Position numbers and translations under genes: made by a program
Notes under the pieces: generated by a model
What the model was told of the DNA's origin: nothing
Databases searched by the model: none
The model's input: only the letters and a program-made list of their open reading frames with translations
Shown here: one piece after another, positions 35,432 through 63,627 of the stretch
Position numbering within the stretch: the stretch's first letter is position 1
How the letters are laid out: each line of letters opens with the position of its first letter
Source of the DNA: a virus
Taxonomy: Duplodnaviria; Caudoviricetes
Virus record (IMG/VR): IMGVR_UViG_3300028886_000028
Coordinates: 128,001-192,000 of that record
Length of the DNA stretch: 64,000 nucleotides
Strand: one strand, 5' to 3'

Positions 35432-36703
35432 ATGGGAATTTATTTAAAAAAATTTAGCGCTCATACTGATTATGAAGCAGCTAAAAGTAGTTTAATACTA
35501 CCAAATGTATCAATATGCTCTGATGTGCTTGATGAGGTGCATTATAATCCATATGTAGGTATAAGTAGTGTTACACTTAACAAGAGTGAATTAAGTCTTA
35601 ATAAGGGTGAAACTGAGACGTTGGTAGCCACTGTATTGCCAGCTAATGCAAGTAACAAGGGTGTTACTTGGTCATCAAGTGATGATAGCGTTGCCACTGT
35701 GAGCAGTAACGGTCTTGTGACTGCTATTGGTGGTGGTAATACCAATATTACTGTAACAACTGTTGATGGTGGCTTTACAGCGCAATGTTCATTAAACATC
35801 ATTGTAAATGTAGCAGGTGTTACACTCAATAAGAGCACACTTAGTCTTAGCAAAGGTGCAACTGAAACATTAGTTGCAACAGTATCACCAAGCGATGCTG
35901 GTAATAAGAACGTTATTTGGTCATCGAGTAATGATAGTGTTGCTACTGTTAATAGCAATGGTCTTGTAACGGCTATTGGCGATAGTGGTAGTGCTATTAT
36001 TACAGTTACAACAGTTGATGGTGGTTTTACTGCACAGTGTGGCTGTAGTGTAATTGACACTAATGGGCATGATTATGTTGAGATTGGTGGACTTAAGTGG
36101 GCAACAAAGAATGTTGGTGCAAGCAAAATTACTGATAATGGTTTATATTTCCAATGGGGTGATACCCAAGGCTACACTGTTGACCAAGTAGGTAGTGGAA
36201 GCGGCAAGAAAGCCTTTGATTGGCCAGATTATAAGTACATAAGTGGAGTAGGAACATCAAGTTCGGCATTTACAAAATACAATTCAACTGATGGTTTAAC
36301 AACTCTTGAGGCTGTTGATGATGCTGCAAGTGTTAATATGGGTGGTTCATGGCGTATGCCAACATCTGAAGAATTACAAGCTCTTGGTGCTGCTAGTGAT
36401 TTTATCACGTCTGGCGGAACAAAAATAACAACCAGTGATAAGTTAACAACCTTAAATGGTGTCAAGGGTATCTTAGTTGCAGATAAAAACGACTATTCCA
36501 AGAGATTATTCTTTCCTACTGCGGGCTACTGCGCCAACACAACTGTGAACGATAGAGGAAGTAAAGGCTTCTGCCGGACGAGTTCGCTTTACAGTGGCGA
36601 CGTGAGTAAAGCCTACACCTTGCTCTTATTCAGCTACGGAGTGTACTGGGGTAGCGGCGGCCCTCGCAGCAACGGCTATCCGGTTCGTGGCGTGATTGCT
36701 TAA
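35432..36703 (+). CDS. Leader-family modular protein: leader + 2x Big_2 + C-terminal CLec/DUF1566-like domain with variable-looking end
   Basis: Leader MGIYLKKFSAHTDY...VHYNP; two 83-aa Big_2 repeats (249-nt period); HDYVEIGGLKWATKNVGA, WRMPT, LFFP..G, GYPVRGV. Confidence 0.88.
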   Translation: MGIYLKKFSAHTDYEAAKSSLILPNVSICSDVLDEVHYNPYVGISSVTLNKSELSLNKGETETLVATVLPANASNKGVTWSSSDDSVATVSSNGLVTAIGGGNTNITVTTVDGGFTAQCSLNIIVNVAGVTLNKSTLSLSKGATETLVATVSPSDAGNKNVIWSSSNDSVATVNSNGLVTAIGDSGSAIITVTTVDGGFTAQCGCSVIDTNGHDYVEIGGLKWATKNVGASKITDNGLYFQWGDTQGYTVDQVGSGSGKKAFDWPDYKYISGVGTSSSAFTKYNSTDGLTTLEAVDDAASVNMGGSWRMPTSEELQALGAASDFITSGGTKITTSDKLTTLNGVKGILVADKNDYSKRLFFPTAGYCANTTVNDRGSKGFCRTSSLYSGDVSKAYTLLLFSYGVYWGSGGPRSNGYPVRGVIA

Positions 36704-36718
36704 TAAGCACTGCATACA

Positions 36719-36788
36719 AGGAGTAATCAAATAGGTTACTCCTTTTATTATGCCACCTTATGATTGTGGTCATACCAATGGAAGTACA
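36719..36788 (+). repeat. Cassette 3' element type A, copy 2
   Basis: Matches 32966-33019. Confidence 0.9.
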
Positions 36789-37011
36789 CCTTGTATATTT
36801 ATTCAGAAGGGGAATTTATTACCAACAGGTATATAGTTCCCTAAATTAATATTACACTCACATTCACATATTAAGCCTAAGTAATTATACCGTCGTTGTT
36901 ACTGCAACGATGGTTCTTTATTTATAAAGATAGTTATTTATTTGTTTATTTCAACAATTAATGCTATTTTTACATTAAAAAGATATTTATTAATATAAAA
37001 TTTAGTGAAGT

Positions 37012-37191
37012 ATGTTTAAGTTAGTAAGTAATATAAAAAACTCTAAATGGTCATTCATGAATGGCTACAATATATTTAATATGGAAACTGTTTGGCTATC
37101 AAAGAAAGAAGATGCACGTAAGTATTCTTTATTAGATGAAAATGGCAACAAACTTGATGTTAATGTTGAAGATTTTTTAGTTGATGAATAA
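37012..37191 (+). CDS. Small hypothetical protein (59 aa, not in ORF track)
   Basis: ATG 21 nt after GATATTTAT; MFKLVSNIK...FLVDE; stop overlaps next start. Confidence 0.55.
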   Translation: MFKLVSNIKNSKWSFMNGYNIFNMETVWLSKKEDARKYSLLDENGNKLDVNVEDFLVDE

Positions 37192-37843
37192 TAAATTAGA
37201 ATCATATATGATAAATAAAATAACAGATAAAGGCTTTAAATTTTCAAGTATTGTAAATAATGTTTTGAAAGAGTCTTTATCCAGATTGGCGTATCATTTC
37301 ACGTCTTTAAAGAAATTTTATCAAATGGTAGATTCTGATTCAATTATATTTTCCACAGCTCATGGCACTGATGAGTTAATAAATGCTGATTATGGTAGGG
37401 GTGCTCCTTATTATTTGTCAACAACAAGAGTTCGTGATGGAAGATTTGGGTATTCTAGTGGATTAAATACAAGAATAGAATTGAATTCTGATTTCTTCAA
37501 TAGTAGGTTTCATTCAGGGCCCGTTAATTTCTTTGTGCCTGACGAAAGGGAAAGAAATTACCACAGTAAGCAAAATGTAGGAAAAGCAGAAAACGAAGAT
37601 AGAATTTTTTCAAATGTAAAGGTTTTAGAAGGTTTATCTAAATGCATTAATAGGGTAGATATATATTTGAATATACCTAATGAGGAACTGCCTTTATTCA
37701 AGCAAAGATATTATGATATATATTTGATGCTTCGTGACATATATAATACAGGTATAGGTCTTAAAACCTTTATTTATAACGATGAAAAAGAATTTAATAG
37801 ACAAGGAAAAAATATAACAGAAATAATATTAAAAATGTTGTAA
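37184..37843 (+). CDS. Hypothetical protein, possible ADP-ribosyltransferase-like fold
   Basis: AYHFTS, YLSTTR and ENEDR motifs in ART-like order. Confidence 0.35.
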   Translation: MNNKLESYMINKITDKGFKFSSIVNNVLKESLSRLAYHFTSLKKFYQMVDSDSIIFSTAHGTDELINADYGRGAPYYLSTTRVRDGRFGYSSGLNTRIELNSDFFNSRFHSGPVNFFVPDERERNYHSKQNVGKAENEDRIFSNVKVLEGLSKCINRVDIYLNIPNEELPLFKQRYYDIYLMLRDIYNTGIGLKTFIYNDEKEFNRQGKNITEIILKML

Positions 37844-37850
37844 AAATCAT

Positions 37851-39332
37851 ATGGGAAGTTATATAAAAATATTTAATACTCATGAAGAGTATCTTGAATG
37901 GGTAGAAACTTCATTGGTAGAGCCTAACATTTCATTTTGTAAAGATAAGCCTCGCCAAGTACATTATCATCCATTGTCTGGATGTACAGAAGGTGTTGTG
38001 TATAAAATTACAAGCACGCCATCTTACCCTTCTATAATTGAAAACGATGTGACATCATTTGATATTAGCTTTGATTATAGAAAGGCTGATATAGATGAAC
38101 ATTGCAGAGAAACAGATATTGTAAACAGCGCTGATACTGTAACAGTTAATTGTGGCGCAAATACAGGCTCAACAGATAGAGTTGTATCAGGAGTCGTAAC
38201 ATGGAATAGAAACGATATTGAATATAACGTTGTTCAAAAAGGAGTTTGTGTTGATTCCACTGTATATGAACTTGTAGGAAATCCATCTTATCCGGCAACT
38301 ATTCAATATGACGTAACATCATTTGATATTAATTTCAATTATAAGAAAACTGTAACAACAAGTGATTGTCAAAAAACTGTTACAAACAGTGCAGATACTG
38401 TAACTGTTAATTGCGGAGCGAATACAGGTTCATCAGATAGAACAGTGTCAGGTACTGTAACATGGAATGGCATAAACATTGAGTATAGTGTTACGCAGAA
38501 AAAAGGTTGTACTGTTTCAACTGTATATGAGCTTGTAGGAAATCCATCTTATCCAGCAACAATTGAATACGATACAACATCATTTGTTATTAACTTTAAT
38601 TACAAAAAAACTGATACAAATGAGTATTGCCAAGAAACTGTTACAAACAGTGCAGATACTGTAACTGTTAATTGTGGCGCGAATACAGGTTCGTCAGATA
38701 GAACAGTATCCGGTACCGTAACATGGAATGGAATTAATATTGAATATAACGTTACACAAAGTGGCTATTCTGACCCGTATGGAGGCTATGAGTATGTTGA
38801 CTTAGGTCTTCCTAGTGGATTAAAATGGGCTAAATATAATATTGGTGCTTCCAATGAAAGCGAAGTAGGAATGTATTTTTCATACGGAAATATAGTCGGG
38901 CATTATAATTGTGACGGGTATGATTTTTCATCCGCTAGTTACAGTACAACAAACGGTTATAGATTAAGCGGAAATATACCTCAAAATTCACAGTATGATG
39001 CGGCTATTGCTATTTGGGGTAATGGATGGAGAATGCCGACGCGAGACGAATTTCAAGAATTAATAAATAATACAACTTGTTCTTATGATTCAAATACATA
39101 TACATTCACTATAACAAGTAAAATAAATGGTAAATCAATTAAAATAAAAGCTTCAGGATATTGGGATAATACTTCTTGCCCTAGCCTTACGACAACATCA
39201 ATATATATCATGTCTTCCACATTATCAGGAAAATATGGAGTATCATTGAATGCCTCTTCTTATGGCGATTATAAAATGCACGTATATGGTAATAGATTTA
39301 CAGGCTTACCAATTCGTCCTGTACATAGTTAA
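37851..39332 (+). CDS. Leader-family modular protein: divergent leader + 3x 87-aa BACON-like repeats + CLec/DUF1566-like domain
   Basis: MGSYIKIFNTHEEY...LVEPNISFC...QVHYHP; YEYVDLGLPSGLKWA, WRMPT, GLPIRPV. Confidence 0.85.
   Translation: MGSYIKIFNTHEEYLEWVETSLVEPNISFCKDKPRQVHYHPLSGCTEGVVYKITSTPSYPSIIENDVTSFDISFDYRKADIDEHCRETDIVNSADTVTVNCGANTGSTDRVVSGVVTWNRNDIEYNVVQKGVCVDSTVYELVGNPSYPATIQYDVTSFDINFNYKKTVTTSDCQKTVTNSADTVTVNCGANTGSSDRTVSGTVTWNGINIEYSVTQKKGCTVSTVYELVGNPSYPATIEYDTTSFVINFNYKKTDTNEYCQETVTNSADTVTVNCGANTGSSDRTVSGTVTWNGINIEYNVTQSGYSDPYGGYEYVDLGLPSGLKWAKYNIGASNESEVGMYFSYGNIVGHYNCDGYDFSSASYSTTNGYRLSGNIPQNSQYDAAIAIWGNGWRMPTRDEFQELINNTTCSYDSNTYTFTITSKINGKSIKIKASGYWDNTSCPSLTTTSIYIMSSTLSGKYGVSLNASSYGDYKMHVYGNRFTGLPIRPVHS
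37981..38760 (+). repeat. Three tandem 261-bp coding repeats
   Basis: C...VYE.VG.PSYPATI...NSADTVTVNCGANTGS.DR.VSG.VTWN..IEY.V.Q x3; copies 2 and 3 near-identical in DNA. Confidence 0.9.
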
Positions 39333-39333
39333 T

Positions 39334-39365
39334 AAAAGAGCAATCTTTGTTGATTGCTCTTTTTC
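39334..39365. terminator. Bidirectional terminator between convergent genes
   Basis: AAAAGAGCAATC-TTTGTT-GATTGCTCTTTT. Confidence 0.75.
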
Positions 39366-39368
39366 ATT

Positions 39369-40385
39369 TTAAAATAGTTCATATTCTTGCATTTTTTTTG
39401 CTTGTCTCAAACACATTACAATTCCTTTATATCCATATTTTTCATATATTTCGCTTGGGTCTTTTCCTAAATCTGTATTGATTAATTTTATTTTGCCGTA
39501 TAGTCTTCCATGATTTAATTCTTTGTATATATTTTTATTTTCATCCATTGTATCATTATCAAGCCATATATTTATGTTTGCGTTTGCATTTTTGATAATT
39601 TCCCAATATAATTTAAACTCTTTATTAATTGCTTTTCCCAATAAAGGAACTGAATTTGGAACTACTATATGGTCGAATGGGCCTTCTACTATCGTAATAT
39701 CTGCATCCCATTGAAGTTTATCTTCATTGAAAATTATATTTTTCCTTTCTGTTTTTGGATTGAAATATTTTACCATTCCTTTTCTATCAAGATAATCTCT
39801 TCCTGTCCAGTAATTTAAATCGCCATATAAATCATGTGATGGAATATATATTCTATATGATGAAATATATTCGTCTTTGTTGTATTCCGTGAAACCTATG
39901 TTAAATCTATCAATAATATCCCATCCAATTCCTCTATTGTTTAGATATTCAAGTGCTTTTTTTGGATAGTATTTATCTTTCCTAAACTGTTTAAAGGTTT
40001 TGGGCAGCATCAAATCTTCAATATCAATTGATTTTGTATCAATGTTAAATTCATCTTCCGAAAATTTTAATTTATATAGTTTACTTTCACGAAATGAACG
40101 TATTGCTTCTTTATAATCATTCAATAATTGTTCATTTCCATACAGTTTAATGAGCTTCAAAATAGAGCCACTCATTTGTTCCCCTTCATTAGAACACGAC
40201 CAACAGTGATAACGCTGAATCTGTAAATTAACTTCCAGATTAAATTTATGTGCTTCCTTTTCTCCTTTATTTTCTATACATTTTGGACATCCAAACTGTA
40301 GCTGCATGTTTTTACCATCAAATCCATTTTTTGCTTCTCCAAGAAATGATGCTAATATATTATACATTTTATCAAGTTCATCCAT
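39369..40385 (-). CDS. DNA primase (zinc finger + TOPRIM)
   Basis: CPKC...HCWSC zinc finger, YLNNRGI, IVEGPFD, WLDND. Start MDELDK at 40385 preferred. Confidence 0.85.
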   Translation of the reverse strand: MDELDKMYNILASFLGEAKNGFDGKNMQLQFGCPKCIENKGEKEAHKFNLEVNLQIQRYHCWSCSNEGEQMSGSILKLIKLYGNEQLLNDYKEAIRSFRESKLYKLKFSEDEFNIDTKSIDIEDLMLPKTFKQFRKDKYYPKKALEYLNNRGIGWDIIDRFNIGFTEYNKDEYISSYRIYIPSHDLYGDLNYWTGRDYLDRKGMVKYFNPKTERKNIIFNEDKLQWDADITIVEGPFDHIVVPNSVPLLGKAINKEFKLYWEIIKNANANINIWLDNDTMDENKNIYKELNHGRLYGKIKLINTDLGKDPSEIYEKYGYKGIVMCLRQAKKMQEYELF

Positions 40386-40404
40386 AATTAAATATTTTTG
40401 TAGG

Positions 40405-40412
40405 CAAATATA
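40405..40412 (-). promoter_or_regulatory. Bacteroidota -7 element upstream of primase
   Basis: TATATTTG 20 nt upstream of ATG. Confidence 0.65.
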
Positions 40413-40473
40413 CATAAAAATTTTAGAAAAACAAAGCTGAATAGATATTTATATTTAAAAAATATTATTTTAA

Positions 40474-40752
40474 ATGGATAAGAAAAAAGTAATTAGGGAT
40501 AGTGATATTTTGAGAGGAATGGAAATGATGGTTGATTATGAGCCTACTGTTTATGGCTATAATGGTCATTATTATTACACAAATCTTGCTGAAGAATCAG
40601 CAATAATTGATGACCACACACATAGATTTGATGAACATTCTCTTGATGATACTCAGGGAATTATTTGGCAAGATAATTCTTTAGATGAAAATAATTTGGA
40701 AGAAAAACAAGTTGAATGGCTTAAAAAGGCATTCTGGTTGTATTATTATTAA
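40474..40752 (+). CDS. Hypothetical protein
   Basis: Follows ATATTTAT motif. Confidence 0.55.
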   Translation: MDKKKVIRDSDILRGMEMMVDYEPTVYGYNGHYYYTNLAEESAIIDDHTHRFDEHSLDDTQGIIWQDNSLDENNLEEKQVEWLKKAFWLYYY

Positions 40753-40772
40753 ATAATTGAAAAATATATAAT

Positions 40773-41435
40773 ATGATGAAAAGGCAAATAAAATTAACAG
40801 AATCTGAATTTAAATCAGTTATAGAAGGAGCAGTTAGCAAATTGGTTAAAGAATATACTGATTTTGATAAACGAAAATTTTATGGCAGGGCGTCTTCAGA
40901 TGAAGATGATGATTTTAACGAGCAGCCGGCAAATAACATTGCTTCAGAAGGAAAACAGTATAAAGTGAATGAATCTCAGCTTTATTCAATTATAAAAGAG
41001 TCTGTAATGAAAATTTTGAAAGAATCAGGCGATACTCATAGATTCGGAGCAGGAAAGTATGGATTGGCTATGGATGCTGCCAGCAAAGCAAGGTCTTTAG
41101 GCAGAATTAGACAAAGTGATAATTTAAAATCATATGCAGCTGATGATTTTAATGAAAGATATGGCATGAATGGATTTGAAATGGATGAATATGGCACGTT
41201 AAGGCATAGAGGTGAAGATGGAAAAGAAAGAATGTATAGACCGTCCAGTATGATTAAAAATCTTGAAGCACAAAAAGGTTTGCAAGGAGGAAATGATAAA
41301 CTTGATAATGCTTTAAGGAATAATTCTTATATTAAAAATGCAGCTCAAATTGCAAAAGCATACCCAAGGAAAAAAATGACAAGCGGAATTGATACAATTG
41401 AAAAAGTTGATAACGGAATATATGGGAATCAATAA
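40773..41435 (+). CDS. Putative internal head protein (two LTES..IIKES-type motifs)
   Basis: IKLTESEFKSVIEGAVSKLVKE and KVNESQLYSIIKESVMKILKES. Confidence 0.5.
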   Translation: MMKRQIKLTESEFKSVIEGAVSKLVKEYTDFDKRKFYGRASSDEDDDFNEQPANNIASEGKQYKVNESQLYSIIKESVMKILKESGDTHRFGAGKYGLAMDAASKARSLGRIRQSDNLKSYAADDFNERYGMNGFEMDEYGTLRHRGEDGKERMYRPSSMIKNLEAQKGLQGGNDKLDNALRNNSYIKNAAQIAKAYPRKKMTSGIDTIEKVDNGIYGNQ

Positions 41436-41464
41436 AAGCGAGGTTAAGTAGCCTCGCTTTTTTA
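41434..41464. terminator. Terminator between convergent genes
   Basis: AAAAGCGAGGTT-AAGT-AGCCTCGCTTTT. Confidence 0.75.
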
Positions 41465-41538
41465 TATACTTTATTAAACCGCAATCGTATTTTTTATAAA
41501 ATTTCAATTTTACTCATGCAGCAAATATACAAAAAAAA

Positions 41539-42318
41539 TTAAATGTATGTTATTCTATGAACTTTTTTATCCCAATACTCAACATCATATTCAATTTTAG
41601 TCGGAGTTGTTTCATTTCCATCAGTTGATATTGAAGATGAAATTGAATCAACTTTCATTTCAAGTTCTCCGTATTTTTTTTTGTTTAAATACCCAAGACA
41701 AGCAACATAACTATCACTAGCATCGAAGTTTTCTTTCCTAAGTTCTCCTTTTTTGTCATAGACCCATTCAATATCAGGAAATAATTTTGCCACTTTATCT
41801 TGCATGACAGTTTTTTTATCGACCTCCCAACTATAGCTTCCAAATAATACAAATTTGCTATTTGTTATTTCGTTCATAATTTTTTTATATTCGTATTGTT
41901 TTCCGTCTTTTCCATATTTTCTTATTGCCATAAGTTCTGGGAAGGAGTATTTTCTTGCATCATAACTTGAAATATATTCTGGTACAATTCCTAATACATT
42001 ATAAATGCAATCAGAAATCATGCCGTTAAATCTAAGTAAAGTGCCGCAGGTATTGATATTGTTTGAGCGCAAAAGAGGCTCTTCAATTACTGCTTCATCT
42101 ATACCTATTCCTTTAAATTTCTCTATGAATTTTTCAAAAATTTGTTTTTTTAGAAATAATTGTTCTATTCCTTTTATTTTTGAAGAGACTTTTGGGCTTA
42201 TGTGAGTTAATTCAATTATTTTTCCATAATCTGAACCATCATCAAGAAGTAACGTTATGCCAATTGTTTGCGTTGATACGTCGCACCCTAGTATAATTTT
42301 ATTTCCGTTTTTATCCAT
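41539..42318 (-). CDS. RuvC-like Holliday junction resolvase
   Basis: ILGCDVSTQTIG, AVIEEP, FDASDSY acidic motifs. Confidence 0.7.
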   Translation of the reverse strand: MDKNGNKIILGCDVSTQTIGITLLLDDGSDYGKIIELTHISPKVSSKIKGIEQLFLKKQIFEKFIEKFKGIGIDEAVIEEPLLRSNNINTCGTLLRFNGMISDCIYNVLGIVPEYISSYDARKYSFPELMAIRKYGKDGKQYEYKKIMNEITNSKFVLFGSYSWEVDKKTVMQDKVAKLFPDIEWVYDKKGELRKENFDASDSYVACLGYLNKKKYGELEMKVDSISSSISTDGNETTPTKIEYDVEYWDKKVHRITYI

Positions 42319-42440
42319 GTATATTATATATTATTAATATTATTAACCGGAATATATACCGGATTTTTTTAAAAAATATATAATTTTAAATATTTTTAAA
42401 CATTAATTTAAAAAAATTACTTTTTTACATATTTTTTTTG

Positions 42441-42448
42441 TATATTTG
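42441..42448 (+). promoter_or_regulatory. Bacteroidota -7 element
   Basis: TTTTTTTGTATATTTG 17 nt before ATG 42466. Confidence 0.65.
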
Positions 42449-42465
42449 TAAAAATAATATATATT

Positions 42466-42825
42466 ATGTTTATAACCATACCTAGAGTATTAGAGAATGA
42501 TATAATGAATTTTGTTAGGTTAAACAATGTGGAAGATGTAAACAGTTTTCTTGCAAGTTGTTTACGTGATGGGTTTAATATAGCAAAATATGGTTATTCA
42601 CCACAAGATAATTTCAATAAAGAAAATAAACCATTTAAAATAGAAGAATATGGAACAGAAGAAAAAGTTGACATTGAAGGATTGGAGAAAAAAGAAACAA
42701 AGAAAAGAGGAAGGCCAAAAAAGCAGCAATCAACAGAGGAAGAAAATGTCAAATCAGTTGAAGAAAGAAAAGAAGAGCAGCAGCCAATAAAACCGAAGAA
42801 AACAATTAGAATAATTAAGAAATAA
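42466..42825 (+). CDS. Hypothetical protein with AT-hook-like KKRGRPKK
   Basis: Charged C-terminal half. Confidence 0.55.
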   Translation: MFITIPRVLENDIMNFVRLNNVEDVNSFLASCLRDGFNIAKYGYSPQDNFNKENKPFKIEEYGTEEKVDIEGLEKKETKKRGRPKKQQSTEEENVKSVEERKEEQQPIKPKKTIRIIKK

Positions 42826-42827
42826 TT

Positions 42828-45206
42828 ATGCTTAATATAAAAAATAATTCGAGAATAACTTTCCACTGGAAAGTATCTCCTTATGATTATTCAAAAGATA
42901 AAGTTAATAGTATTATTTCAAAAGCAAGTAAAAAATATGGCATACCAAAAGAGCATATAAGGGTTATTCCTGATTTTACCCTCGCTGATGAAAGTGGGTC
43001 AGAAATATCAATTAATAAAGATATTATACAAAATATTCAAGACCCAAATTTTCAAGTTAAATTATTTAAAGATTATCTCAAAATTAACAATATTGATAAT
43101 TGTGATTTTGATTTGATAAAAAAAATTGATTCAGAAATAAATGCAAAAATTGATTACCAAGTTTACGATAAATATAGGAAATATTCTATCAAGTGGATAC
43201 GATGGGATAATTTTCTGTCATATGGAACCGGCAACTATTTTGACTTTACAAATCTTAAAGACATTGTTCTATTAAGTGGAAAGCCAAGCAACCAAAGTGG
43301 TAAAACTACATTTGCTATTGATTTGCTACATTTCCTATTGTTTGGCAAAACAGAAAAAGCAGAGGTTCAAAGCAAAATTTTCAATAAACACATTCCGGAA
43401 GCAACAAATGTTATTGTTGAAGGATGTATAAATATTGATGGGGAAGATTACATAATTAAAAGAACTCTTTCAAGGCCTTCTTTAGATAAAAGAACTGAGA
43501 AAAGCAAAGTTACGCAAAAAGTAGAATACTATAAAATAGTAGGCGGTAATAAAGAAGAATTAGAAGAATATATAGACAATCAGCAGGAAGAAAACACAGC
43601 GAAAACAAATAAAGTAATAAAAGAAGCTTTAGGAAGAGAAAGTGATTTTGACCTTATAATGTCTATTACAGAGTCTAATCTTGATGCTTTAATAGGTATG
43701 AAAGAAACCGAAAGAGGCAGAATATTATCACGTTGGATAGGACTTTTGCCTATTGAGGAAAAAGATTCATTCGCTAGGGAAAAATATAATACAGAAATAA
43801 AACCTTATTTGCTATCTAACAGATATAATAGCGAAGCGTTAAAACAAGAAAAAACTGCTTATGAAATTAAAATAAAGTCCAATCAACAAGTCATAGAGGA
43901 AATAAACAAGTCAAATGCTGTTTTGGAAAAGGAAATTGAAAATCTTGAAAAAAATAAAAATGCACTTATTCAATCAAAACAAACAATAGATGAAACTTTA
44001 TTAAAAGTAGATATTTCAACTCTTAATGCAAAAATAGAAAGACTTACAAATGATGGCATTAAGAAAAAATATGAATTAGAAAAAGGAGAAAAGAGGATAA
44101 AAGAAATAGGCGATGTAGATTTTTCTGTTGAAAAATATGACAATGCAATCCAAGAGCTTTCAAATCTTAAAGAGAAAAGAGGAAGTTTACTGGCAATGCA
44201 CAATAATATAAAGCATAATTTAGAACATCTTAAAAGTAGTGAAATATGCCCGGTGTGTCATAGGAAACTTGACAATGTTGATAATAGTAAGCAAATAAAA
44301 GAAACTGAAAAAGAACTTTTGAATATTGTTGAAGAAGGCAAAAAAGTTTCAGAGAATATTTCTAAAGTTGAAAAATTAATAGTTTCAATGAAAGAAAACA
44401 GAGAACTTTATACAGAAAGGTCTAAACTTTCAATGTCAAATGCTGCTCTTGAGGTCTCAATGTCAAAATTAAGGGAAGAGTTAAGAGAATCAAGAAACGT
44501 CTTAAAAGAATATAATAAAAACAGTACAGCTATTGATAATAACAATAAATTAGATATTCAAATAAACAATAATGAAATTCATTTGAAGAATAAAAGAAAC
44601 CAGAAAGAAGTGAATTTAAAAAACATTCTTAATAAAGAAAACGAAATAAACAATTTCAAAAAAGACATTTCTGATAGGGTTGAGATTTTATCTAAAATGG
44701 ATGAAGAAGAAAAGTTGATAAGAAATTGGAAGATTTATCTTGAAATGGTAGGTAAAAACGGAATTTCAAAAATGGTATTTAGAAAAACGTTGCCTATTAT
44801 AAATGCTAAATTATCACACTTATTGAGTGATGTGTGTGATTTTGATGTTGAGGTTGGAATAAATGTTAAAAATGATGTCATGTTCTATTTGATTAAAGAT
44901 GGAGTGAAATCTGATTTGTCAAGTGGAAGTGGCTTTGAAAAAACAGCAGCATCTTTGGCATTAAGAACAGTTCTCGCAGAATTATCAACAATACCGAGAA
45001 ATTCATTTTTATTGTGTGATGAAATAACAGGTAGAGTTTCTGAAGAAAATTTGGAAAATATACATAATTTGCTTAATAAAATGTTAAAAAATTATGACCA
45101 TATATTTATAATATCACATTTAGACCAAATTAAATCATGGGCATCCAGCAATGTTATTGTTGAAAAAACAGATAATATAAGTAAAATTACTCTTATTAAA
45201 AAATAA
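42828..45206 (+). CDS. SbcC/Rad50/gp46-like ATPase with N-terminal extension
   Basis: WDNFLSYG, NQSGKTT (Walker A), coiled coil with CPVC zinc hook, SSGSGFE signature, LLCDE, IISH. Confidence 0.9.
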   Translation: MLNIKNNSRITFHWKVSPYDYSKDKVNSIISKASKKYGIPKEHIRVIPDFTLADESGSEISINKDIIQNIQDPNFQVKLFKDYLKINNIDNCDFDLIKKIDSEINAKIDYQVYDKYRKYSIKWIRWDNFLSYGTGNYFDFTNLKDIVLLSGKPSNQSGKTTFAIDLLHFLLFGKTEKAEVQSKIFNKHIPEATNVIVEGCINIDGEDYIIKRTLSRPSLDKRTEKSKVTQKVEYYKIVGGNKEELEEYIDNQQEENTAKTNKVIKEALGRESDFDLIMSITESNLDALIGMKETERGRILSRWIGLLPIEEKDSFAREKYNTEIKPYLLSNRYNSEALKQEKTAYEIKIKSNQQVIEEINKSNAVLEKEIENLEKNKNALIQSKQTIDETLLKVDISTLNAKIERLTNDGIKKKYELEKGEKRIKEIGDVDFSVEKYDNAIQELSNLKEKRGSLLAMHNNIKHNLEHLKSSEICPVCHRKLDNVDNSKQIKETEKELLNIVEEGKKVSENISKVEKLIVSMKENRELYTERSKLSMSNAALEVSMSKLREELRESRNVLKEYNKNSTAIDNNNKLDIQINNNEIHLKNKRNQKEVNLKNILNKENEINNFKKDISDRVEILSKMDEEEKLIRNWKIYLEMVGKNGISKMVFRKTLPIINAKLSHLLSDVCDFDVEVGINVKNDVMFYLIKDGVKSDLSSGSGFEKTAASLALRTVLAELSTIPRNSFLLCDEITGRVSEENLENIHNLLNKMLKNYDHIFIISHLDQIKSWASSNVIVEKTDNISKITLIKK

Positions 45207-45232
45207 TTTTTTAGAAAAAATGTTTAATTTTA

Positions 45233-45961
45233 ATGGCAAATCAATATGTTAATGATTTTAGCACCACCGTTAAAACGTATTATGACGAGTTAAAACGATA
45301 TAAACCAATATCTAGAAATAAAGAAAGAGAATTAATTTTAAGGGCAAAAATTGGTGATATTGAAGCACAAAATGAAATTCTCACATCAAATTTAAGATTT
45401 GTATTTAATGTTGCTAGTAGATATAAAGGTAATGGGGCATCAATGTCTGATTTAATATCAGAAGGAAATTTAGGACTAATTAAGGCAATACAAAAATTCG
45501 ACCCAAACAAAAATGTTAAGTTTATTTCTTATGCTGTGTGGTGGATAAGAAATGCAATGCAAGAATTTATTAAAAAAAGGCAAACATGCTTGAATATTGA
45601 AAAGGACGAAGAAGAATTAAATAGACCAGTAATGGTAACGAGCTTTCATTTTGATGAAGAAGATGAACGTGTAGTTAAGAAAGAAGTAGTTATGTCTAAT
45701 GAGGAAGAAGAAGAAAAAAGAGAAATACAAAAAAAACAAGGCATAATTATTAATAAAATCCTTTCAATTCTCTCTGATAGAGAAAGATATATAGTGGAAG
45801 ATTATTACGGCATTGATGGAAAAAAAGAAAAAAATCTTGAAGAAATAGGAAAAGTATTAGGTATAACAAAAGAACGTGTTAGACAAATTAAACAGGTGTC
45901 TTTAAATAAATTGCGTTCAGAAATATTACTTATCGAAGGAGCAGATTTTATTTTTAAATAA
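45233..45961 (+). CDS. Phage-encoded sigma-70 family factor
   Basis: DLISEGNLGLIKAIQKFDP..KFISYAVWWIR (region 2); LEEIGKVLGITKERVRQI (region 4). Confidence 0.92.
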   Translation: MANQYVNDFSTTVKTYYDELKRYKPISRNKERELILRAKIGDIEAQNEILTSNLRFVFNVASRYKGNGASMSDLISEGNLGLIKAIQKFDPNKNVKFISYAVWWIRNAMQEFIKKRQTCLNIEKDEEELNRPVMVTSFHFDEEDERVVKKEVVMSNEEEEEKREIQKKQGIIINKILSILSDRERYIVEDYYGIDGKKEKNLEEIGKVLGITKERVRQIKQVSLNKLRSEILLIEGADFIFK

Positions 45962-45985
45962 TATTTATTATAAAATATAATTATA

Positions 45986-46291
45986 ATGGCAGCAAAAAAA
46001 GAAACATCAAAGAAAAAAGATACTACTAAAAAACAAACAGTAAAAAAAATTACTAAAATGGTAGAAGAACCGATAAATCAAGTTATTGAAGAAAAAGATG
46101 ATGTAAAACAAAATGAAGAAATACCTACTGCTGATGTTGCAATAGATGAAGCAATTGCTAATACAATTGAAGAAGTTGTTGAAGCACCGGCTAAAGAAGT
46201 AGAAAAGGTTGAGAAAGGCGTTAAAAAAATAATTAAAAAGCTTAACCATAGTTTTGGTTATCTTTGGAATGGACAAATGATAGATTATTAA
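45986..46291 (+). CDS. Hypothetical protein
   Basis: Follows ATATTTAT; Lys/Glu-rich, ends GYLWNGQMIDY. Confidence 0.55.
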   Translation: MAAKKETSKKKDTTKKQTVKKITKMVEEPINQVIEEKDDVKQNEEIPTADVAIDEAIANTIEEVVEAPAKEVEKVEKGVKKIIKKLNHSFGYLWNGQMIDY

Positions 46292-46293
46292 AT

Positions 46294-46875: not shown

Positions 46876-46910
46876 GTAGGGAATTATATACCTGTTTACA
46901 ATAAACTATA

Positions 46911-46958
46911 GAATGCAGTCAGAAATGGCTGCATTTTTTGTTGCCTTAGATATTTATA
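46911..46958 (+). repeat. Cassette 5' element, copy 2
   Basis: Matches 31521-31570. Confidence 0.85.
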
Positions 46959-46990
46959 TAAAAAAATTAGATTTTAAAAAAGTAATAGCT

Positions 46991-48028
46991 ATGAAAAATT
47001 TTAAATTATTTAGTGCTCATACTGATTATGAGGCAGCTCAGAGCAGTTTAATACTACCAAATGTATCATTTTGTCTTGATACGCCAAATGAGGTACATTA
47101 TAATCCATTTGAGTGGTGTGAAGAAACTAGTATATATGAAGTAATAGGTAGTCCTTCATATCCATCTACAATAAATGGTGATATAACATCATTTGATATT
47201 GCAATTAGTTATAGAAGGACTGATACAAGTAGCTCTTGTACTGAAACTGTGACTGAAGGCACAGATACTGTTACCATTGAATGTGGTCAGAATCCAAGCA
47301 CAAGTGATACAAGGACTGTAAGTGGTACAGTTGATTATCATGGTAACGAGATTGAATATAGTGTTACTCAAAATAAGCTTAGTAATAATTCAGCAATTAC
47401 ATATTACGCAGAAAGTAAATTACTTGAGACAACTGATAGTAAATCAGATGGATTACGTACAAATGCGTTTAATGTATCAATTAAAAGCCATACATTCAGT
47501 AACGGTATAGGAACAATAACATTTAGTGGAACTTTAGGAACTATAGGTAGTTATGCTTTCCAAGGTTGTACTGGTCTTACAAGTATAGTTATACCAGATA
47601 GTGTAACAACTATTGGTTATGATGCTTTCAATAGATGTAGAAGCCTTACAAGTATAAATATACCTGATAGCGTTACAAGTATTGGTGACAATGCTTTCTA
47701 TAAATGTAGCGGCCTTACGAATATAGTTATACCTGATAGTGTTACAAGTATTGGTAGTAATGCTTTCGATAGTTGTTCTAATATGACAAGCTGTACAATA
47801 GGTAGTGGCGTAACAAGTATTAGTAATTATGCTTTCTATAATTGTAGTGGTCTTACAAGTATAACATGTAATGCAATGACAGCACCAACAGTAACATCAA
47901 ATTCATTTTACGGCGTCAAAAACGGTGGTACATTATATGTTCCTATAGGTAGCAGCGGTTATGACACTTGGATGGGAACAGGAAGTTATTACTTAGGAAG
48001 TATTAATTGGACTAAGGTAGAACAATAA
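46991..48028 (+). CDS. Leader-family modular protein: leader + BACON-like repeat + BspA-type LRRs
   Basis: Likely start MKNFKLFSAHTDY...EVHYNP at 46991; C-terminus GTLYVP.GS..YD.WMGTG.YYLG...WTKVEQ shared with 31592 gene. Confidence 0.88.
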   Translation: MKNFKLFSAHTDYEAAQSSLILPNVSFCLDTPNEVHYNPFEWCEETSIYEVIGSPSYPSTINGDITSFDIAISYRRTDTSSSCTETVTEGTDTVTIECGQNPSTSDTRTVSGTVDYHGNEIEYSVTQNKLSNNSAITYYAESKLLETTDSKSDGLRTNAFNVSIKSHTFSNGIGTITFSGTLGTIGSYAFQGCTGLTSIVIPDSVTTIGYDAFNRCRSLTSINIPDSVTSIGDNAFYKCSGLTNIVIPDSVTSIGSNAFDSCSNMTSCTIGSGVTSISNYAFYNCSGLTSITCNAMTAPTVTSNSFYGVKNGGTLYVPIGSSGYDTWMGTGSYYLGSINWTKVEQ

Positions 48029-48054
48029 TAAGCAATAAAAAGAAATAAATGTTT

Positions 48055-48080
48055 AACCCCTTTTTAAAAGGGGTTTTTTT
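48055..48080 (+). terminator. Intrinsic terminator
   Basis: AACCCCTTTT-T-AAAAGGGGTT palindrome plus T-run. Confidence 0.7.
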
Positions 48081-48114
48081 GTGTTTTAAAGATATTTATA
48101 TAAAAATATTGTAT

Positions 48115-51094: not shown

Positions 51095-51126
51095 TAAACC
51101 CTTATAAAAGTATTTGAAAATTAAAA

Positions 51127-51930: not shown

Positions 51931-51942
51931 AATATTAGTATT

Positions 51943-52623: not shown

Positions 52624-52635
52624 TAAACAATAAGT

Positions 52636-53373
52636 ATGAAATATTTAAAATTATTTAATGACCATGCTGAATATGAAGTTGCTAAGAATGGTTTAATACT
52701 ACCTAATGTATCAAATTGTGTTAATACACAAAATGAAGTGCATTATAATCCTTATGACCCATATGCAGGCCATGAGTATGTTGAGATTGGCGGCTTGAAA
52801 TGGGCAACAATGAACATTGGTGCTTCGCAGCCAAGTGATTATGGTTTGTATTTCCAATGGGGTGACACACAAGGCTACACTGCTGAACAAGTAGGTAGTG
52901 GTGAAGGACAGAAATACTTTGGTTGGGAAGACTATAAATACGGTAATGGTACAAGTTCGCCAGGTGCTACAGGAATGACCAAGTATAACTCTACTGATGG
53001 CTTAACAACACTTGAGGCTGTTGATGATGCTGCTGTTGCTAATTGGGGTGGCAGTTGGCGTATGCCAACAACTGATGAATTCCAAGCTCTTGGTGCTGCC
53101 GTAAACACTGCATGGACTCAAGTTAACAACGTGTATGGTATGTTATGTACAGATAAGGAAGATAGTTCCAAGACATTATTCTTCCCTGCTGCTGGCAGCT
53201 GTCTCAATGGCAGTGTCAGATTCGTAGGCAATGACGGTGGCTATTGGTCTAGTTCTCTTGACACTGATGGTGGGCAGGACGCCTACGACTTGGACTTTTT
53301 CAGTAGCTATGCTGACTGGGGTAGCAGCGGCAGCCGCTGCTGCGGCTTCGCAGTTCGTCCTGTGGTTGGTTGA
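52636..53373 (+). CDS. Leader-family protein: leader + CLec/DUF1566-like domain, candidate DGR target
   Basis: MKYLKLFNDHAEY...EVHYNP; HEYVEIGGLKWATMNIGA, WRMPT, YWSSS, GFAVRPV; NNC-rich 3' end. Confidence 0.88.
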   Translation: MKYLKLFNDHAEYEVAKNGLILPNVSNCVNTQNEVHYNPYDPYAGHEYVEIGGLKWATMNIGASQPSDYGLYFQWGDTQGYTAEQVGSGEGQKYFGWEDYKYGNGTSSPGATGMTKYNSTDGLTTLEAVDDAAVANWGGSWRMPTTDEFQALGAAVNTAWTQVNNVYGMLCTDKEDSSKTLFFPAAGSCLNGSVRFVGNDGGYWSSSLDTDGGQDAYDLDFFSSYADWGSSGSRCCGFAVRPVVG

Positions 53374-53501
53374 GAATTCATCATCACCAATAAACCAAAA
53401 TAAACTTGATTGCCACAAGCGTCAGCCCAAGGCAATCAAGTTTTCTATTTATGCCACCTTGTTATGCATATACTAATGCCAACAGATATATAGTTTCCAA
53501 A
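53371..53501 (+). repeat. Cassette 3' element type B (~130 bp with 13-bp hairpin), copy 1
   Basis: Reverse complement of 62840-62970 with 5 mismatches; stem AAACTTGATTGCC/GGCAATCAAGTTT. Confidence 0.95.
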
Positions 53502-53591
53502 CTTAAAGCGAACTTTTCATGTTAAATTCTTTATTTATTAGTATTTTTTTTTATTTTTTATAAAAATAATAATTCAGAAAGCAAAAAGTAA

Positions 53592-54065
53592 ATGTTACAG
53601 GATGAAATAATGAAATTGGGAGATTACTTTAGAGGAATTGAATATTTCAATGATGCCCTAATTGTAAAAGTTAATTTCCCACCACGATGGCAAGTATATC
53701 CTTCAATAGATGGCAATATAAAGCCCGCCAGTGGAGAAAAAATAGCAGGTGAGTACTTTTATTATGGGGATATGAATAAAGTGTCTCTTGATGAAATTTT
53801 TGAACTGATTAAGGAAACAATTGATGCAAATAAGGATGCAGAATCTAAAATTCAATTGCTCAATGATAAAGTTAATGAACTTAAAGAGTTGTTTAAAAGA
53901 GAGCCATTAGATAGGCTTTTAAAATTGAATTTCATAATAGAAGAAGCGAAAGAAAAAAAACCAAAAAGAAAATACAATAAAAAAAAGAAAGTTGAAGATG
54001 TTAAAGTTGAATCAGATACTATTTTAACAGAACCGGTAATTATTGAAAATGAAAAGGAAGATTAA
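53592..54065 (+). CDS. Hypothetical protein
   Basis: 157-aa ORF starting an operon. Confidence 0.55.
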   Translation: MLQDEIMKLGDYFRGIEYFNDALIVKVNFPPRWQVYPSIDGNIKPASGEKIAGEYFYYGDMNKVSLDEIFELIKETIDANKDAESKIQLLNDKVNELKELFKREPLDRLLKLNFIIEEAKEKKPKRKYNKKKKVEDVKVESDTILTEPVIIENEKED

Positions 54066-55506: not shown

Positions 55507-56189
55507 GGTCTTAATGAGTTTCTACGAATTTTTAAATCTGACCAGTTGGTCAGATTTTTTATTTTTTGAAACCAAGTTTTTCTAAGTTTGCTATGAAAAG
55601 CGTCTCCTGAAAAGAAAACATATTTAAGTTTATTTTTTTCGCATTCTCTTTCTAATTCATTAAATAGTCTTATGCAATCTGATTCATTTTTACACATAAC
55701 CATGTTAAGTGAATTTGTTGTAGAAATTAAAAGTTTATTTTGGTAAATTAATATTTGTTTGAAATTATATTTATTTGATTCATTTGATATTAAGTTACCA
55801 TATATCCATTCAAAATTTTTTCTTTGAAAAACTGGATGAAAGCCATATACCCAAAAAGTCTCTTCTTTATCATAGTTTTCCCTGTCATATATTATCCAAT
55901 TTTCATTATTTGTTTTATAATTAATTATTTTACCGTTCTCGTCTTTTAATTTGGTACTTTCAGTATTATCATCATTTCTTTTAATAATATACAATTCATA
56001 ATTTGCATTTATTAATTTTCCAACATTGATATATCTAACCGGAAATTTTATTTTTTTATTTTCTGAAATTAATTCTTCAAACTTTTTATTAACCAATTTT
56101 TCCGATGCGCAGTTATACAATGTTTTAATCATTTTTCCATTGCTTACTAATATAATATGATATATATTTTTTTTGGGTATTTTTTGCAT
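55503..56189 (-). CDS. Hypothetical protein
   Basis: 228-aa ORF, divergent from 56294. Confidence 0.55.
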   Translation of the reverse strand: MQKIPKKNIYHIILVSNGKMIKTLYNCASEKLVNKKFEELISENKKIKFPVRYINVGKLINANYELYIIKRNDDNTESTKLKDENGKIINYKTNNENWIIYDRENYDKEETFWVYGFHPVFQRKNFEWIYGNLISNESNKYNFKQILIYQNKLLISTTNSLNMVMCKNESDCIRLFNELERECEKNKLKYVFFSGDAFHSKLRKTWFQKIKNLTNWSDLKIRRNSLRP

Positions 56190-56228
56190 ATTTTAATTAA
56201 ATTATTTCTTTTTTTTAATATTTTTTTG

Positions 56229-56236
56229 TATATTTG
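56229..56236 (+). promoter_or_regulatory. Bacteroidota -7 element
   Basis: TTTTTTTGTATATTTG upstream of the 56294 operon. Confidence 0.6.
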
Positions 56237-60464: not shown

Positions 60465-60821
60465 ATGATTGACGCACCAAAAACAACATTATTAAATAAT
60501 ATAGATGACTTGGATTTAGTATTTCTTGAAGGGGAAAACGATTTAGAGTTTGAAATAGATGATTATTCATTTGTTGTAACATATTCCCTAGAAGAAGATG
60601 ATTTTTTCACTGAAGATGATGAGGAAATCAAAGGAGGAAAAAAACTGAAAATTTTATCAATAAACGCATATGATAATGTAGAGAATGAAGACATAAACGT
60701 TAACGTTGATGACGAAATGCAAAAATTATTCTCAGATTATTATAAAAATATGTTAAATGATGAAGGATATGAGCCATTAAATGTTAATTTTGGTGAATTT
60801 TCTGATTTTATGGATGAATAA
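60465..60821 (+). CDS. Highly acidic hypothetical protein
   Basis: Asp/Glu-rich, 118 aa. Confidence 0.55.
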   Translation: MIDAPKTTLLNNIDDLDLVFLEGENDLEFEIDDYSFVVTYSLEEDDFFTEDDEEIKGGKKLKILSINAYDNVENEDINVNVDDEMQKLFSDYYKNMLNDEGYEPLNVNFGEFSDFMDE

Positions 60822-60845
60822 TTTCTTTTTTTGATATTTTTTTTG

Positions 60846-60853
60846 TATCTTTG
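60846..60853 (+). promoter_or_regulatory. Bacteroidota -7 element driving tRNA cluster
   Basis: TTTTTTGTATCTTTG (TAnnTTTG). Confidence 0.7.
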
Positions 60854-62046: not shown

Positions 62047-62295
62047 ATGGGTACATTATTTAATTTTGCAATGCATGTTATTTTATGGCCTATTGTTTTG
62101 TTTCTGGTCTTTACAGCGACTACGAATATTGATTTAATTTTTTATGCTATAAAGAAAGTATTAATTAAAATAAAAGAATATTATGAATTTATTAGAAAAC
62201 GTATTTGTAAAAAAAGCAATAAAGTCGATGATGACGGCGGAGCAATTCGAGACTATGCAGAATTTTATGACAGCAGTTCAGTCTGGGAAGATTGA
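62047..62295 (+). CDS. Small membrane protein
   Basis: N-terminal hydrophobic segment; overlaps next ORF. Confidence 0.4.
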   Translation: MGTLFNFAMHVILWPIVLFLVFTATTNIDLIFYAIKKVLIKIKEYYEFIRKRICKKSNKVDDDGGAIRDYAEFYDSSSVWED

Positions 62296-62392
62296 CCAAA
62301 ACAAACTTAAAAATGTTGGTGAAAAATTATCTAAAATATCGCCGGAAGAAGTGAATAATCTTTTGGACATAATAGACAAAAACTTGAAGTAG
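62183..62392 (+). CDS. Hypothetical helical protein
   Basis: Protein-like composition; ends at a hairpin. Confidence 0.5.
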   Translation: MNLLENVFVKKAIKSMMTAEQFETMQNFMTAVQSGKIDQNKLKNVGEKLSKISPEEVNNLLDIIDKNLK

Positions 62393-62438
62393 TAATTCAA
62401 CTACTCAAGTTTTTCTTTTTTTATAAAAACATTTTTAA

Positions 62439-62825
62439 ATGGTACATGTTATTAATATAAAAACTGATGATAAGACAATGGATGAAGGATATTTCTACGT
62501 AGGCCGTAGCAAATATAATAATTCTCCACTTGGAAACCCCTTTACATGTAAAGGAAAGCGAACAAGTTTAGCAAAACTATCATTTCCAACAGTTGAACAA
62601 GCAATAGAAGCCTACGAAATGTATTTTGATGCCATGTACGGTAAAGATGAAGATTTCACGAAGGCTTTTGATGAAATATACGAATATTATAAAACTGGAA
62701 AAGATGTATATCTTGGATGTTTTTGTGCACCGGGTAAATGCCATGCATCTATCATTGCTAAAAAATTGCAACAGAAATTAATAAAGGAAAAAATGGAAGA
62801 AAGAAAAAAGGAGAAGCTCAAATAA
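62439..62825 (+). CDS. DUF4326-like protein
   Basis: YVGR...SPLGNPF, LGCFCAPGKCHASII. Confidence 0.75.
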   Translation: MVHVINIKTDDKTMDEGYFYVGRSKYNNSPLGNPFTCKGKRTSLAKLSFPTVEQAIEAYEMYFDAMYGKDEDFTKAFDEIYEYYKTGKDVYLGCFCAPGKCHASIIAKKLQQKLIKEKMEERKKEKLK

Positions 62826-62839
62826 GCCTCTCCTTTTTA

Positions 62840-62970
62840 TTTGGGAACTATATATCTGTTGGCATTAGTATATGCATAATAAGGTAGTATAAATAGAAAA
62901 CTTGATTGCCTTGGGCTGACGCTTGTGGCAATCAAGTTTATTTTGGTTTATTGGCGATGATGAATTCTCA
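62840..62970 (-). repeat. Cassette 3' element type B, copy 2
   Basis: Reverse complement matches 53371-53501. Confidence 0.95.
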
Positions 62971-63627
62971 ACCTACCACAGGGCGAACCGAGAAGCCGTA
63001 GTAACGGTAGTCCTTGAACACGCCCTTGGCACCATTGAGAAAGAAGAAGCTGTAAGCGTTACCACTACCATTAGGAGAAGAACCCCAATAGTAACCGCTA
63101 TTGCCTACATCGCTCTGGCTACCATTGTACCAGCGGCCAACAGCAGGAAGAAATAAAACAGCCCCATTGGTGGCTGTGAATGTACCACCATTTATTCCAC
63201 TACCTTTGTAGTTTGTTACCCACTGATAAGTAGTATTAGCTGTCAATTCTTGCATTTGTACACTCGTTGGCATATGCCAAGAGCCACCCCACACTTGCAC
63301 TGCTGTATCTACAGAAGAATCTAATGGGTATTCTGTTCCACTATAGTTGCTATCGCCACTTGTTGCTGCATATTGAGCAGCGCCCTTACCGTATTGATAG
63401 TAATTACCATAATCCGTTTCTGATGAAGCACCCACGTTCATTGTAGCCCAAAGTGTACCACTTGGTAGACCAAGGTCAACATACTCATGGCCTGCATATG
63501 GGTCAACATAAGGATTATAATGCACTTCATTAGGCGTATCATTACATGTTGATACATTTGGTAGTATCAAATTACTCTGTGCTGATTCGTAATCAGTATG
63601 AGCATTAAATTTTTTTAAGTATTTCAT
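62968..63627 (-). CDS. Leader-family protein: leader + CLec/DUF1566-like domain, candidate DGR target
   Basis: MKYLKKFNAHTDY...EVHYNP; HEYVDLGLPSGTLWATMNVGA, WHMPT, YYWGSS, GFSVRPV; NNC-rich 3' end. Confidence 0.88.
   Translation of the reverse strand: MKYLKKFNAHTDYESAQSNLILPNVSTCNDTPNEVHYNPYVDPYAGHEYVDLGLPSGTLWATMNVGASSETDYGNYYQYGKGAAQYAATSGDSNYSGTEYPLDSSVDTAVQVWGGSWHMPTSVQMQELTANTTYQWVTNYKGSGINGGTFTATNGAVLFLPAVGRWYNGSQSDVGNSGYYWGSSPNGSGNAYSFFFLNGAKGVFKDYRYYGFSVRPVVG

Follow-up and report, generated by a model that had tools for sequence, protein, structure and literature searches.

Orphan products of diversity-generating retroelements in a jumbo phage genome that lacks such an element

Introduction

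A complete 401-kb rumen phage genome carries two proven products of diversity-generating retroelements (DGRs) whose templates lie in the genomes of other phages. The products are variable regions (VRs) at the C-termini of adhesin genes. They were found in a window of 64,000 nucleotides, bases 128001-192000 of the 401,138-bp IMG/VR phage record IMGVR_UViG_3300028886_000028 (GC content ~30%). Three genes in this window, g35432, g52636 and g63627, end in tails of unusual composition. Two of these tails were, and the third probably was, written by one or more DGRs outside this genome; we call them orphan products. The tails and the genes that bear them are listed here; unless marked 'genome', positions in the phage are those of the window.

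VR2: 53182..53371, + strand; DGR variable region, homologous to the template repeat (TR) TR2 of L023 and L086-88
VR3: 62970..63150, - strand; DGR variable region, written from a TR3-type template
VR1: 36513..36700, + strand; VR-like stretch of extreme composition, with no cognate template found
g52636 (bears VR2): 52636..53373, + strand; 245 aa, ~40-aa N-terminal anchor module and lectin-like (Lcl_C/DUF1566-type) domain
g63627 (bears VR3): 62968..63627, - strand; 219 aa, N-terminal anchor module and lectin-like domain
g35432 (bears VR1): 35432..36703, + strand; 423 aa, N-terminal anchor, two Big_2 domains (1.1e-34) and lectin-like domain (weak Lcl_C)

An original prediction, made from the letters of the window, had read all three tails as DGR variable regions and offered two sources for them, a multi-template DGR acting in trans or the recent capture of finished products. 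Two questions follow. Are the tails DGR products at all? And how did such products come to lie in a genome that has no reverse transcriptase (RT) to make them? The first is answered for VR2 and VR3 by their comparison with real templates. For the second we favour capture by recombination, and we weigh it below against rewriting in trans.

Results

VR2 and VR3 differ from real templates at template adenines

The template of VR2 was deduced from its alleles and then looked for in metagenome contigs. One contig was found, L023 (NFZD01001081.1), in which TR2 is flanked by the end of an accessory gene and by an RT gene with IGNLTSQ and YVDD motifs. VR2 differs from this TR2 at 29 of 57 template adenines and at 1 of 129 other bases (Fisher 5e-17), and it carries the TGC and CGT variants that are specific to the L023 template. 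The other five alleles show the same adenine pattern when set against TR2 (p 1e-8 to 1e-13). The proportion of changed template adenines, roughly half, matches the density in Bacteroides DGRs, for which changes at about half of the adenines have been reported for single retrohoming events.

Variation among related genomes tells the same story. Orthologues of g52636 in L001, L002, L021, L073 and L074 are ~97-99% identical over the ~300 nt preceding the VR; within it they vary at discrete codon positions 1-2, and the scaffold bases are unchanged. Entropy among 32 protein alleles reaches 2.25 bits at codons whose template has an A at position 1 or 2, compared with 0.37 bits at the remaining codons (p 6e-10). 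The protein database holds >1100 clusters of the ~245-aa protein at 70-81% identity, and alleles are present in ~400-kb genomes (P0124, P0046, P0171, P0178 and P0198). In species-representative bacterial genomes the TR2/VR2 pattern had 0 matches, so that collection gives no sign of a host-borne template or a prophage copy.

VR3 was written from a second template. Its alleles in L024, L025, L027/28, L026 and L036 vary at discrete codons, and hypervariability among related genomes is confined to the VR in VR3 as in VR2. No full-length TR3 was found. The open reading frame (ORF) at the template position of L085 (P0218) is a TR2/TR3 chimera: its first ~63 nt are TR2-like, and the remainder resembles the VR3 scaffold. 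Compared with this chimera over its 3' 120 nt, the part that the comparison covers, VR3 is changed at 17 of 35 adenines and at 4 of 85 other bases (p 7e-8). The VR3 allele of L084, a close relative with 96.6% identity over 4 kb, is not the one found here and differs from it in length by 3 nt; the flanks in L084 have diverged only at background level.

Because their differences from real TRs fall on template adenines, VR2 and VR3 are genuine DGR products of two different templates. TR2 and the TR3-type template are distinct, and they occupy the same position in the same kind of cassette in different phages. The earlier claim that one template cannot explain all three tails therefore holds. The DGR reading itself stands for VR2 and VR3, with their template-adenine mismatches and alleles varying at those positions; for VR1 it has composition alone to go on.

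The genome has no DGR of its own

A complete, self-contained DGR is absent from this genome: RT, accessory gene and TR are all without a match. A six-frame search of the 401-kb genome for RVT_1 gave no match (controls were positive). Neither did tblastn with five DGR RTs, protein X of related cassettes and Avd, where nothing was better than E 0.16; the best E-values for the accessory genes X/Avd were 0.16 and 0.70. A scan of the genome for the YxDD motif was negative, and blastn found no template repeat in it. Each genome position was also scored as a potential template, a base being compatible if identical or A; outside the VRs themselves the best site reached ~77%, against at least 97% for a true TR. 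With no RT, X/Avd or TR, the phage is unable to diversify its own tips. The observation that no RT or template repeat lies near the tails thus extends to the whole genome. The condition named as refuting a DGR, no TR or RT anywhere, is true inside this genome only, since both exist in relatives.

Is the genome complete? The first 149 nt of the record (1-149) recur at its end (400990-401138) with 3 mismatches, so the assembly is self-closing and can be treated as complete; the IMG/VR label is nevertheless 'linear'. The site syntenic with the DGR cassette of relatives is also recognizable. Two genes of this genome, at genome 43980-44450 (156 aa) and 47430-49157 (575 aa), are homologous to the neighbours of that cassette, and between them (genome 44.4-47.4 kb) lie two unrelated 480-aa paralogues instead of lectin, X, TR and RT. 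Five records rated 96-100% complete that carry lectin or anchor relatives (G000, G003, G013, G023 and G024) likewise have no RT.

Sequencing runs that contain the window stretch are gut metagenomes, bovine and sheep ones among them; the source sample is JGI 3300032007 (SRR9008756). A box resembling the Bacteroidota -7 promoter box TAnnTTTG, TTTTTTGTATATTTG, ends repeated AT-rich upstream blocks at 42373-42448, 56161-56236 and 60778-60853; these -7-like boxes hint at a Bacteroidota host.

Templates lie in a family of decaying cassettes

In related rumen phages the cassettes share the order lectin target, X, TR, RT. In the L089-type the cassette is flanked by a 158-aa gene and a 598-aa fibre-like gene and lies upstream of the tail sheath. 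L023 has the same order of X, TR, RT, 598-aa gene and sheath, and the L077 cassette has a different setting. X is an acidic or serine-rich protein of 183-189 aa (~185) that occupies the usual position of Avd and has no Pfam or NCBIfam match. Related loci in L073 and L012 have a bAvd-type protein in its place. The X genes lie at these positions of their own contigs, strand not given:

L086: 430-999
L077: 6220-6771
L074: 7309-7878
L089: 9418-9987

The relatives form a series of decaying cassettes, from apparently intact to deleted. Those of L077 and L078 look intact, and L077 serves as a cis control: its VR differs from its own TR at 19 of 54 adenines and 1 of 135 other bases. The L023 RT is interrupted by an in-frame TAG, and an A8 run in it contains a frameshift. 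In the widespread L089-type lineage (L089 10001-11012; also L090-L094), a deletion joins TR position ~63 to RT residue ~125. It was read in 16 contigs, and the protein of the TR-containing ORF of L089 is also recorded on a 414-kb contig. Because the deletion fuses TR to RT, this DGR is dead. In P0264 the catalytic core of the RT is missing. In L074, a diversified VR-like copy at 7892-8179 stands behind X at the template position and ends in a stop codon with no RT after it; either the template itself was overwritten or it was replaced through recombination with a VR.

Several further features of these loci were noted. The lectin gene of L089 still has a diversified VR2 allele, and another RT gene of 483-611 aa, unlike the first, is found 3 kb upstream. 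On the G017 (L021) contig (98791-100969), a long coiled-coil fibre carries a fused VR2 allele whose end is 172 nt short of the 598-aa gene, exactly where L023 carries TR and RT. L002 has TAG TAG at 10082-10087, in the lectin-gene anchor module, where others encode VQ or TQ, and L023 has a TAG at ~10226, in its RT, where L089 has Q. TAG may thus be recoded to Q in some of the relatives; translation table 11 suits the window itself well.

Two other groups of RTs were considered as template sources and rejected. Relatives of the L023 RT at 24 loci each have a lectin-type TR of their own, and none of these TRs matches VR1-3. The RTs close to homologues in G008, G011, G020 and L073 come with separate TRs and act on other targets.

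A 3' element with a conserved loop follows VR2 and VR3

Downstream of VR2 and of VR3 lies the same element:

VR2 3' element: 53372..53508, + strand; spacer GAGAATTCATCATC..., hairpin at 53402-53443 (13-bp stem, 16-nt conserved loop), motif ATGCCACCTT...CCAACAG
VR3 3' element: 62833..62969, - strand; spacer, hairpin at ~62898-62939, motif ATACTACCTT...CCAACAG

The flanks of VR2 and VR3 are 91% identical to each other over 175 nt. The general layout is the spacer GAGAATTCATCATC..., a hairpin (stem of 11-18 bp; loop of 16-17 nt with the consensus ACAAGCNNCAGCNCAA(G)) and a T run. The fold of the VR2 element has a z of -6.9, within a range of -5.3 to -8.7 among the elements. The same spacer and loop stand behind the cis-DGR VR of L077 and behind alleles in L001, L024, L074 and L089. 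Four stems differ in sequence, each perfectly complementary, and the loop is kept. The loop motif has two copies in the whole genome, one after VR2 and one after VR3. By analogy, the 3' element parallels the rule known from phage BPP-1, where the structure of the stem and the sequence of the loop matter, yet it could simply be a terminator, given the T run that follows the hairpin.

A separate motif, ATRCYACCTT ... CCAAYRG, often followed by TATATAGTTYCC, has five copies in the 401-kb genome: 32981-33012, 36750-36781, 53451-53485, 62856-62890 (-) and genome 325578-325643 (-). The four copies in the window stand directly behind the terminators of anchor-family adhesin genes, and the motif also follows the L001 and L004 alleles.

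Composition marks all three tails, and VR1 has no template

The composition that first drew attention to the tails was reproduced. In the last three 20-codon blocks GC content is 0.50/0.52/0.67 in g35432, 0.50/0.55/0.58 in g52636 and 0.53/0.47/0.56 in g63627, compared with ~0.30-0.45 upstream. The same blocks contain 8/9/11, 10/7/12 and 8/7/9 codons with third-position C, respectively, and 0-4 with third-position A. Each tail thus has 24-29 C-ending codons per ~60 and very few A-ending ones. As a baseline we took 9190 60-codon windows from all ORFs of at least 150 aa in the genome, in which C-ending codons average 6.8 (standard deviation (sd) 3.3). With 29 in VR2 and 28 in VR1, the three tails lie 5-7 sd above this mean, which bears out the abrupt shift to NNC codons and GC-rich sequence described for the last ~60 codons. 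A hand count for g52636 was likewise correct (27 C-ending and 3 A-ending codons at 53191-53370). The VRs are exceeded in C-ending codons only at genome 206.4-207.2 kb (-), outside the window, where an antisense frame runs over a cluster of leucine-rich repeat (LRR) paralogues and is probably not a gene.

Two paralogues serve as internal controls. The domain found in the three genes also occurs in g37851 and in a gene at genome 33.5-35.9 kb, and neither shows a rise in NNC codons or GC; the block counts thus agree with the description of g37851 as free of the bias.

VR1 and VR2 align without gaps, as had been described, with 62.6% identity over 227 nt; the alignment of VR2 with VR3 has two gaps. 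Against the two TRs tried, VR1 shows no adenine specificity. It differs from the L077 TR at 31 of 54 adenines and 45 of 135 other bases, and from the L023 TR at 32 of 57 and 44 of 132, so that a third of the non-adenine positions differ. The strict pattern of same base or A had 0 matches to VR1 in viral and genome contig collections, nor did any near-identical allele turn up. In VR1 an R replaces the conserved W of YWSSS, and a plain terminator follows, without the spacer-loop element of VR2 and VR3. Other members of its lectin subfamily have hypervariable tips. To judge from these sequences, VR1 is probably a decayed relic, an older DGR product no longer refreshed, or else the product of an as yet unsampled template.

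The adhesin gene family

The bearers of the tails belong to a wider family, of which these are the other members:

g31592: 31592..32929, + strand; same anchor and BspA-type LRRs (LRR_5, 2e-77), no DGR target
g37851: 37851..39332, + strand; divergent anchor module, three internal repeats and lectin-like C-terminal domain, without VR signature
g46913/46985: 46985..48028, + strand; same anchor and BspA-type LRRs (LRR_5, 8e-66)
Sixth family member: genome 33.5-35.9 kb, strand not given; paralogue with lectin-like domain, without NNC bias

A ~40-aa N-terminal module, MKYLKxF..H..YE.A...LILPNVS.C......VHYNP, is common to five window genes whose C-terminal binding domains differ. Its copies lie at 31592-31711, 35432-35551, 46985-47107, 52636-52752, 63507-63627 (-) and genome 33.5 kb, with 75-93% DNA identity, and the same module begins DGR targets in L012. 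The module has the look of a shared adaptor that docks exchangeable adhesin heads to the virion.

What is the VR-bearing domain? Lcl_C (PF07603, the former DUF1566) scored 27.1 bits in g52636, with 21.6 and 20.2 bits elsewhere, all below the gathering threshold of 34.9, and g63627 had no Lcl_C match. Many homologues carry precomputed PF07603/PF26707 matches; for the genes studied here this is a resemblance, not filed membership. NCBIfam, including TIGR02145/Fib_succ_major (FISUMP), gave no family at E<=0.01; several close homologues are called 'TIGR02145 family' by the Joint Genome Institute (JGI). The AlphaFold2 (AF2) model of the domain has a mean predicted local distance difference test (pLDDT) score of 64.5, and the VR itself is below 50. 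Foldseek returned no PDB structure at E<=0.001, and a PDB profile search gave 0 matches. The best VIA-align rows, both weak, were TaqVP, the DGR variable protein of Thermus (Z 3.5), and the InvE adhesin (Z 2.6).

Discussion

How did diversified VRs reach a phage that cannot make them? The reading we favour, giving it an even chance, is that they were captured by recombination and that the alleles were then frozen. A lectin module with its already diversified VR and its 3' element would pass between co-infecting phages through homologous recombination, with the near-identical lectin body and 3' element serving as recombination flanks. In this genome the alleles would remain frozen until the next exchange. 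VR1, a product of the same kind but of earlier date, would have drifted from every template and lost its 3' element. The proteins would be modular virion adhesins, with the VR alleles setting ligand specificity.

Two kinds of evidence argue for capture. The lectin gene is a similarity island: phages in which the flanking genes have no blastn match to the window still share its 3' half at ~97-99% identity, and in L070 and L073 only the lectin gene matches it, LRR repeats aside. Retrohoming cannot have produced the identity of the lectin body, because TR homology begins only at 53182. In addition, dead cassettes are common in the relatives, which points toward capture.

Several observations weigh against this reading. 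VR2 and VR3 are almost without decay at non-adenine positions and keep the full 3' spacer and hairpin, a state compatible with live targets and with recent capture alike. The different VR3 allele of L084, on background-level flanks, looks like replacement in place. No recombination breakpoint was seen directly in the allele comparisons. The DGR origin of VR3 is judged from 120 nt of a chimeric template, and the C-type lectin (CLec) fold is left unconfirmed by a low-confidence model and weak structural matches.

The chief rival takes VR2 and VR3 for live targets, rewritten in trans by the X-TR-RT of related phages, or of a prophage in the same cell, with donors that differ in template. We consider this possible but less probable than capture. 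It would account well for the near-perfect non-adenine identity to TR and for the L023-specific TGC and CGT of VR2, as well as for the L084 allele with its 3-nt length difference. The cis-active VR of L077 has the same spacer behind it and a hairpin in which the stem differs but the loop is kept. The five nearly complete records without an RT also speak for it, and in the laboratory a supply of avd-TR-brt rewrites phage lacking these genes. However, there is no evidence of a donor phage sharing a cell or sample with this phage, and several of the RTs linked to TR2 look broken. Recombination is needed in any case to explain why the lectin body is nearly identical upstream of the VR. Read-derived contigs gave nothing on haplotypes: Logan contigs, which drop variants, show over 35400-53600 that the phage occurs in X1, X3, X4 and X6 (X1 identical; the others ~97-98%), and they break at ~52827-52887, without VR haplotypes. 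The more specific proposal, that a DGR-less jumbo phage keeps homing-competent VRs (IMH-like end, after the initiation of mutagenic homing, with spacer and hairpin) which the cassettes of co-infecting relatives rewrite, we likewise hold to be doubtful.

Far less credible is the idea that the genome has its own RT and TR and that we missed them, through an incomplete assembly or an RT too divergent to detect. The 'linear' label would allow it, as would the record of the same lectin protein on a 406,009-bp contig, compared with 401,138 bp here; against it stand the overlapping ends, the negative RVT_1, five-RT tblastn and YxDD searches, a best template-compatible site of ~77% where at least 97% is expected, and the occupation of the syntenic cassette site by other genes. 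That no DGR was involved, and that the GC- and NNC-rich tails are a recently transferred host-like domain or local codon bias, is the least probable account: the lectin domain as a whole is somewhat GC-richer than the genome and VR1 has no template, but the adenine-specific match of VR2 and VR3 to TRs beside RTs would go unexplained, as would same-domain paralogues without the bias, and this account is refuted for VR2 and VR3 and possible for VR1 only.

Of the points first proposed, then, multiple templates are upheld, and the choice between a trans-acting DGR and captured products leans to capture; on either route the diversity comes from outside this genome. If the VRs were captured, DGR-less phages profit from receptor-binding diversity made by DGR-bearing relatives. 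If they are rewritten in trans, retrohoming acts across phage genomes in nature, where so far only plasmids in the laboratory have been seen to supply it; targeted hypermutation would then be a resource shared across phage genomes, with donors supplying different templates. Either way, host-range diversity in rumen jumbo phages is shared more widely than DGR counts suggest, and the conserved-loop hairpin is a concrete candidate element.

How do these targets compare with known systems? Wu et al. (2018) define a category, 'd' or CLec2, in which VRs overlap DUF1566/DUF823/Fib_succ_major and of which Legionella LdtA is the exemplar. As in CLec2-type phage and prophage DGRs, the VR lies at the C-terminus with G-F/Y-x-V-R as its end, the TR is AAC-rich, mutagenesis falls on adenines, about half of which are changed, the RT (in the relatives) matches RVT_1 and has the IGNLTSQ and YVDD motifs, and some targets have Big_2 extensions. 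Unlike those systems, the targets here lie in a genome without RT, TR or accessory gene, and the accessory gene of the relatives is X rather than Avd, L073 and L012 with their bAvd-type cassettes excepted.

The 3' end recalls BPP-1 (mtd-avd-TR-brt), where an IMH-like VR end is also followed by an inverted repeat with a variable stem sequence and a conserved loop. In the work of Guo et al. (2011) on BPP-1, a plasmid carrying avd-TR-brt rewrote phage lacking them, and what counted in the hairpin was the structure of its stem and the sequence of its loop. Hairpins of the BPP-1 type combine a GC-rich stem (7-10 bp) with a GRNA loop of 4 nt and are found 4-34 bp beyond the VR. The element described here, known from sequence alone, has an AT-rich stem of 11-18 bp and a loop of 16-17 nt, lies ~30-50 nt downstream and is followed by a T run.

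According to Wu et al., remote targets are not expected for phage DGRs, none being foreseen beyond 100 kb; the survey of Roux et al. was unable to detect VRs away from the RT. Since DGR surveys begin at the RT and look nearby, targets in RT-less genomes are missed. A parallel is Treponema denticola TvpA and its paralogues, with multiple target genes whose VRs are remote from any RT. The remote targets known so far share a genome with their RT and TR, whereas the templates of VR2 and VR3 reside in the genomes of other phages.

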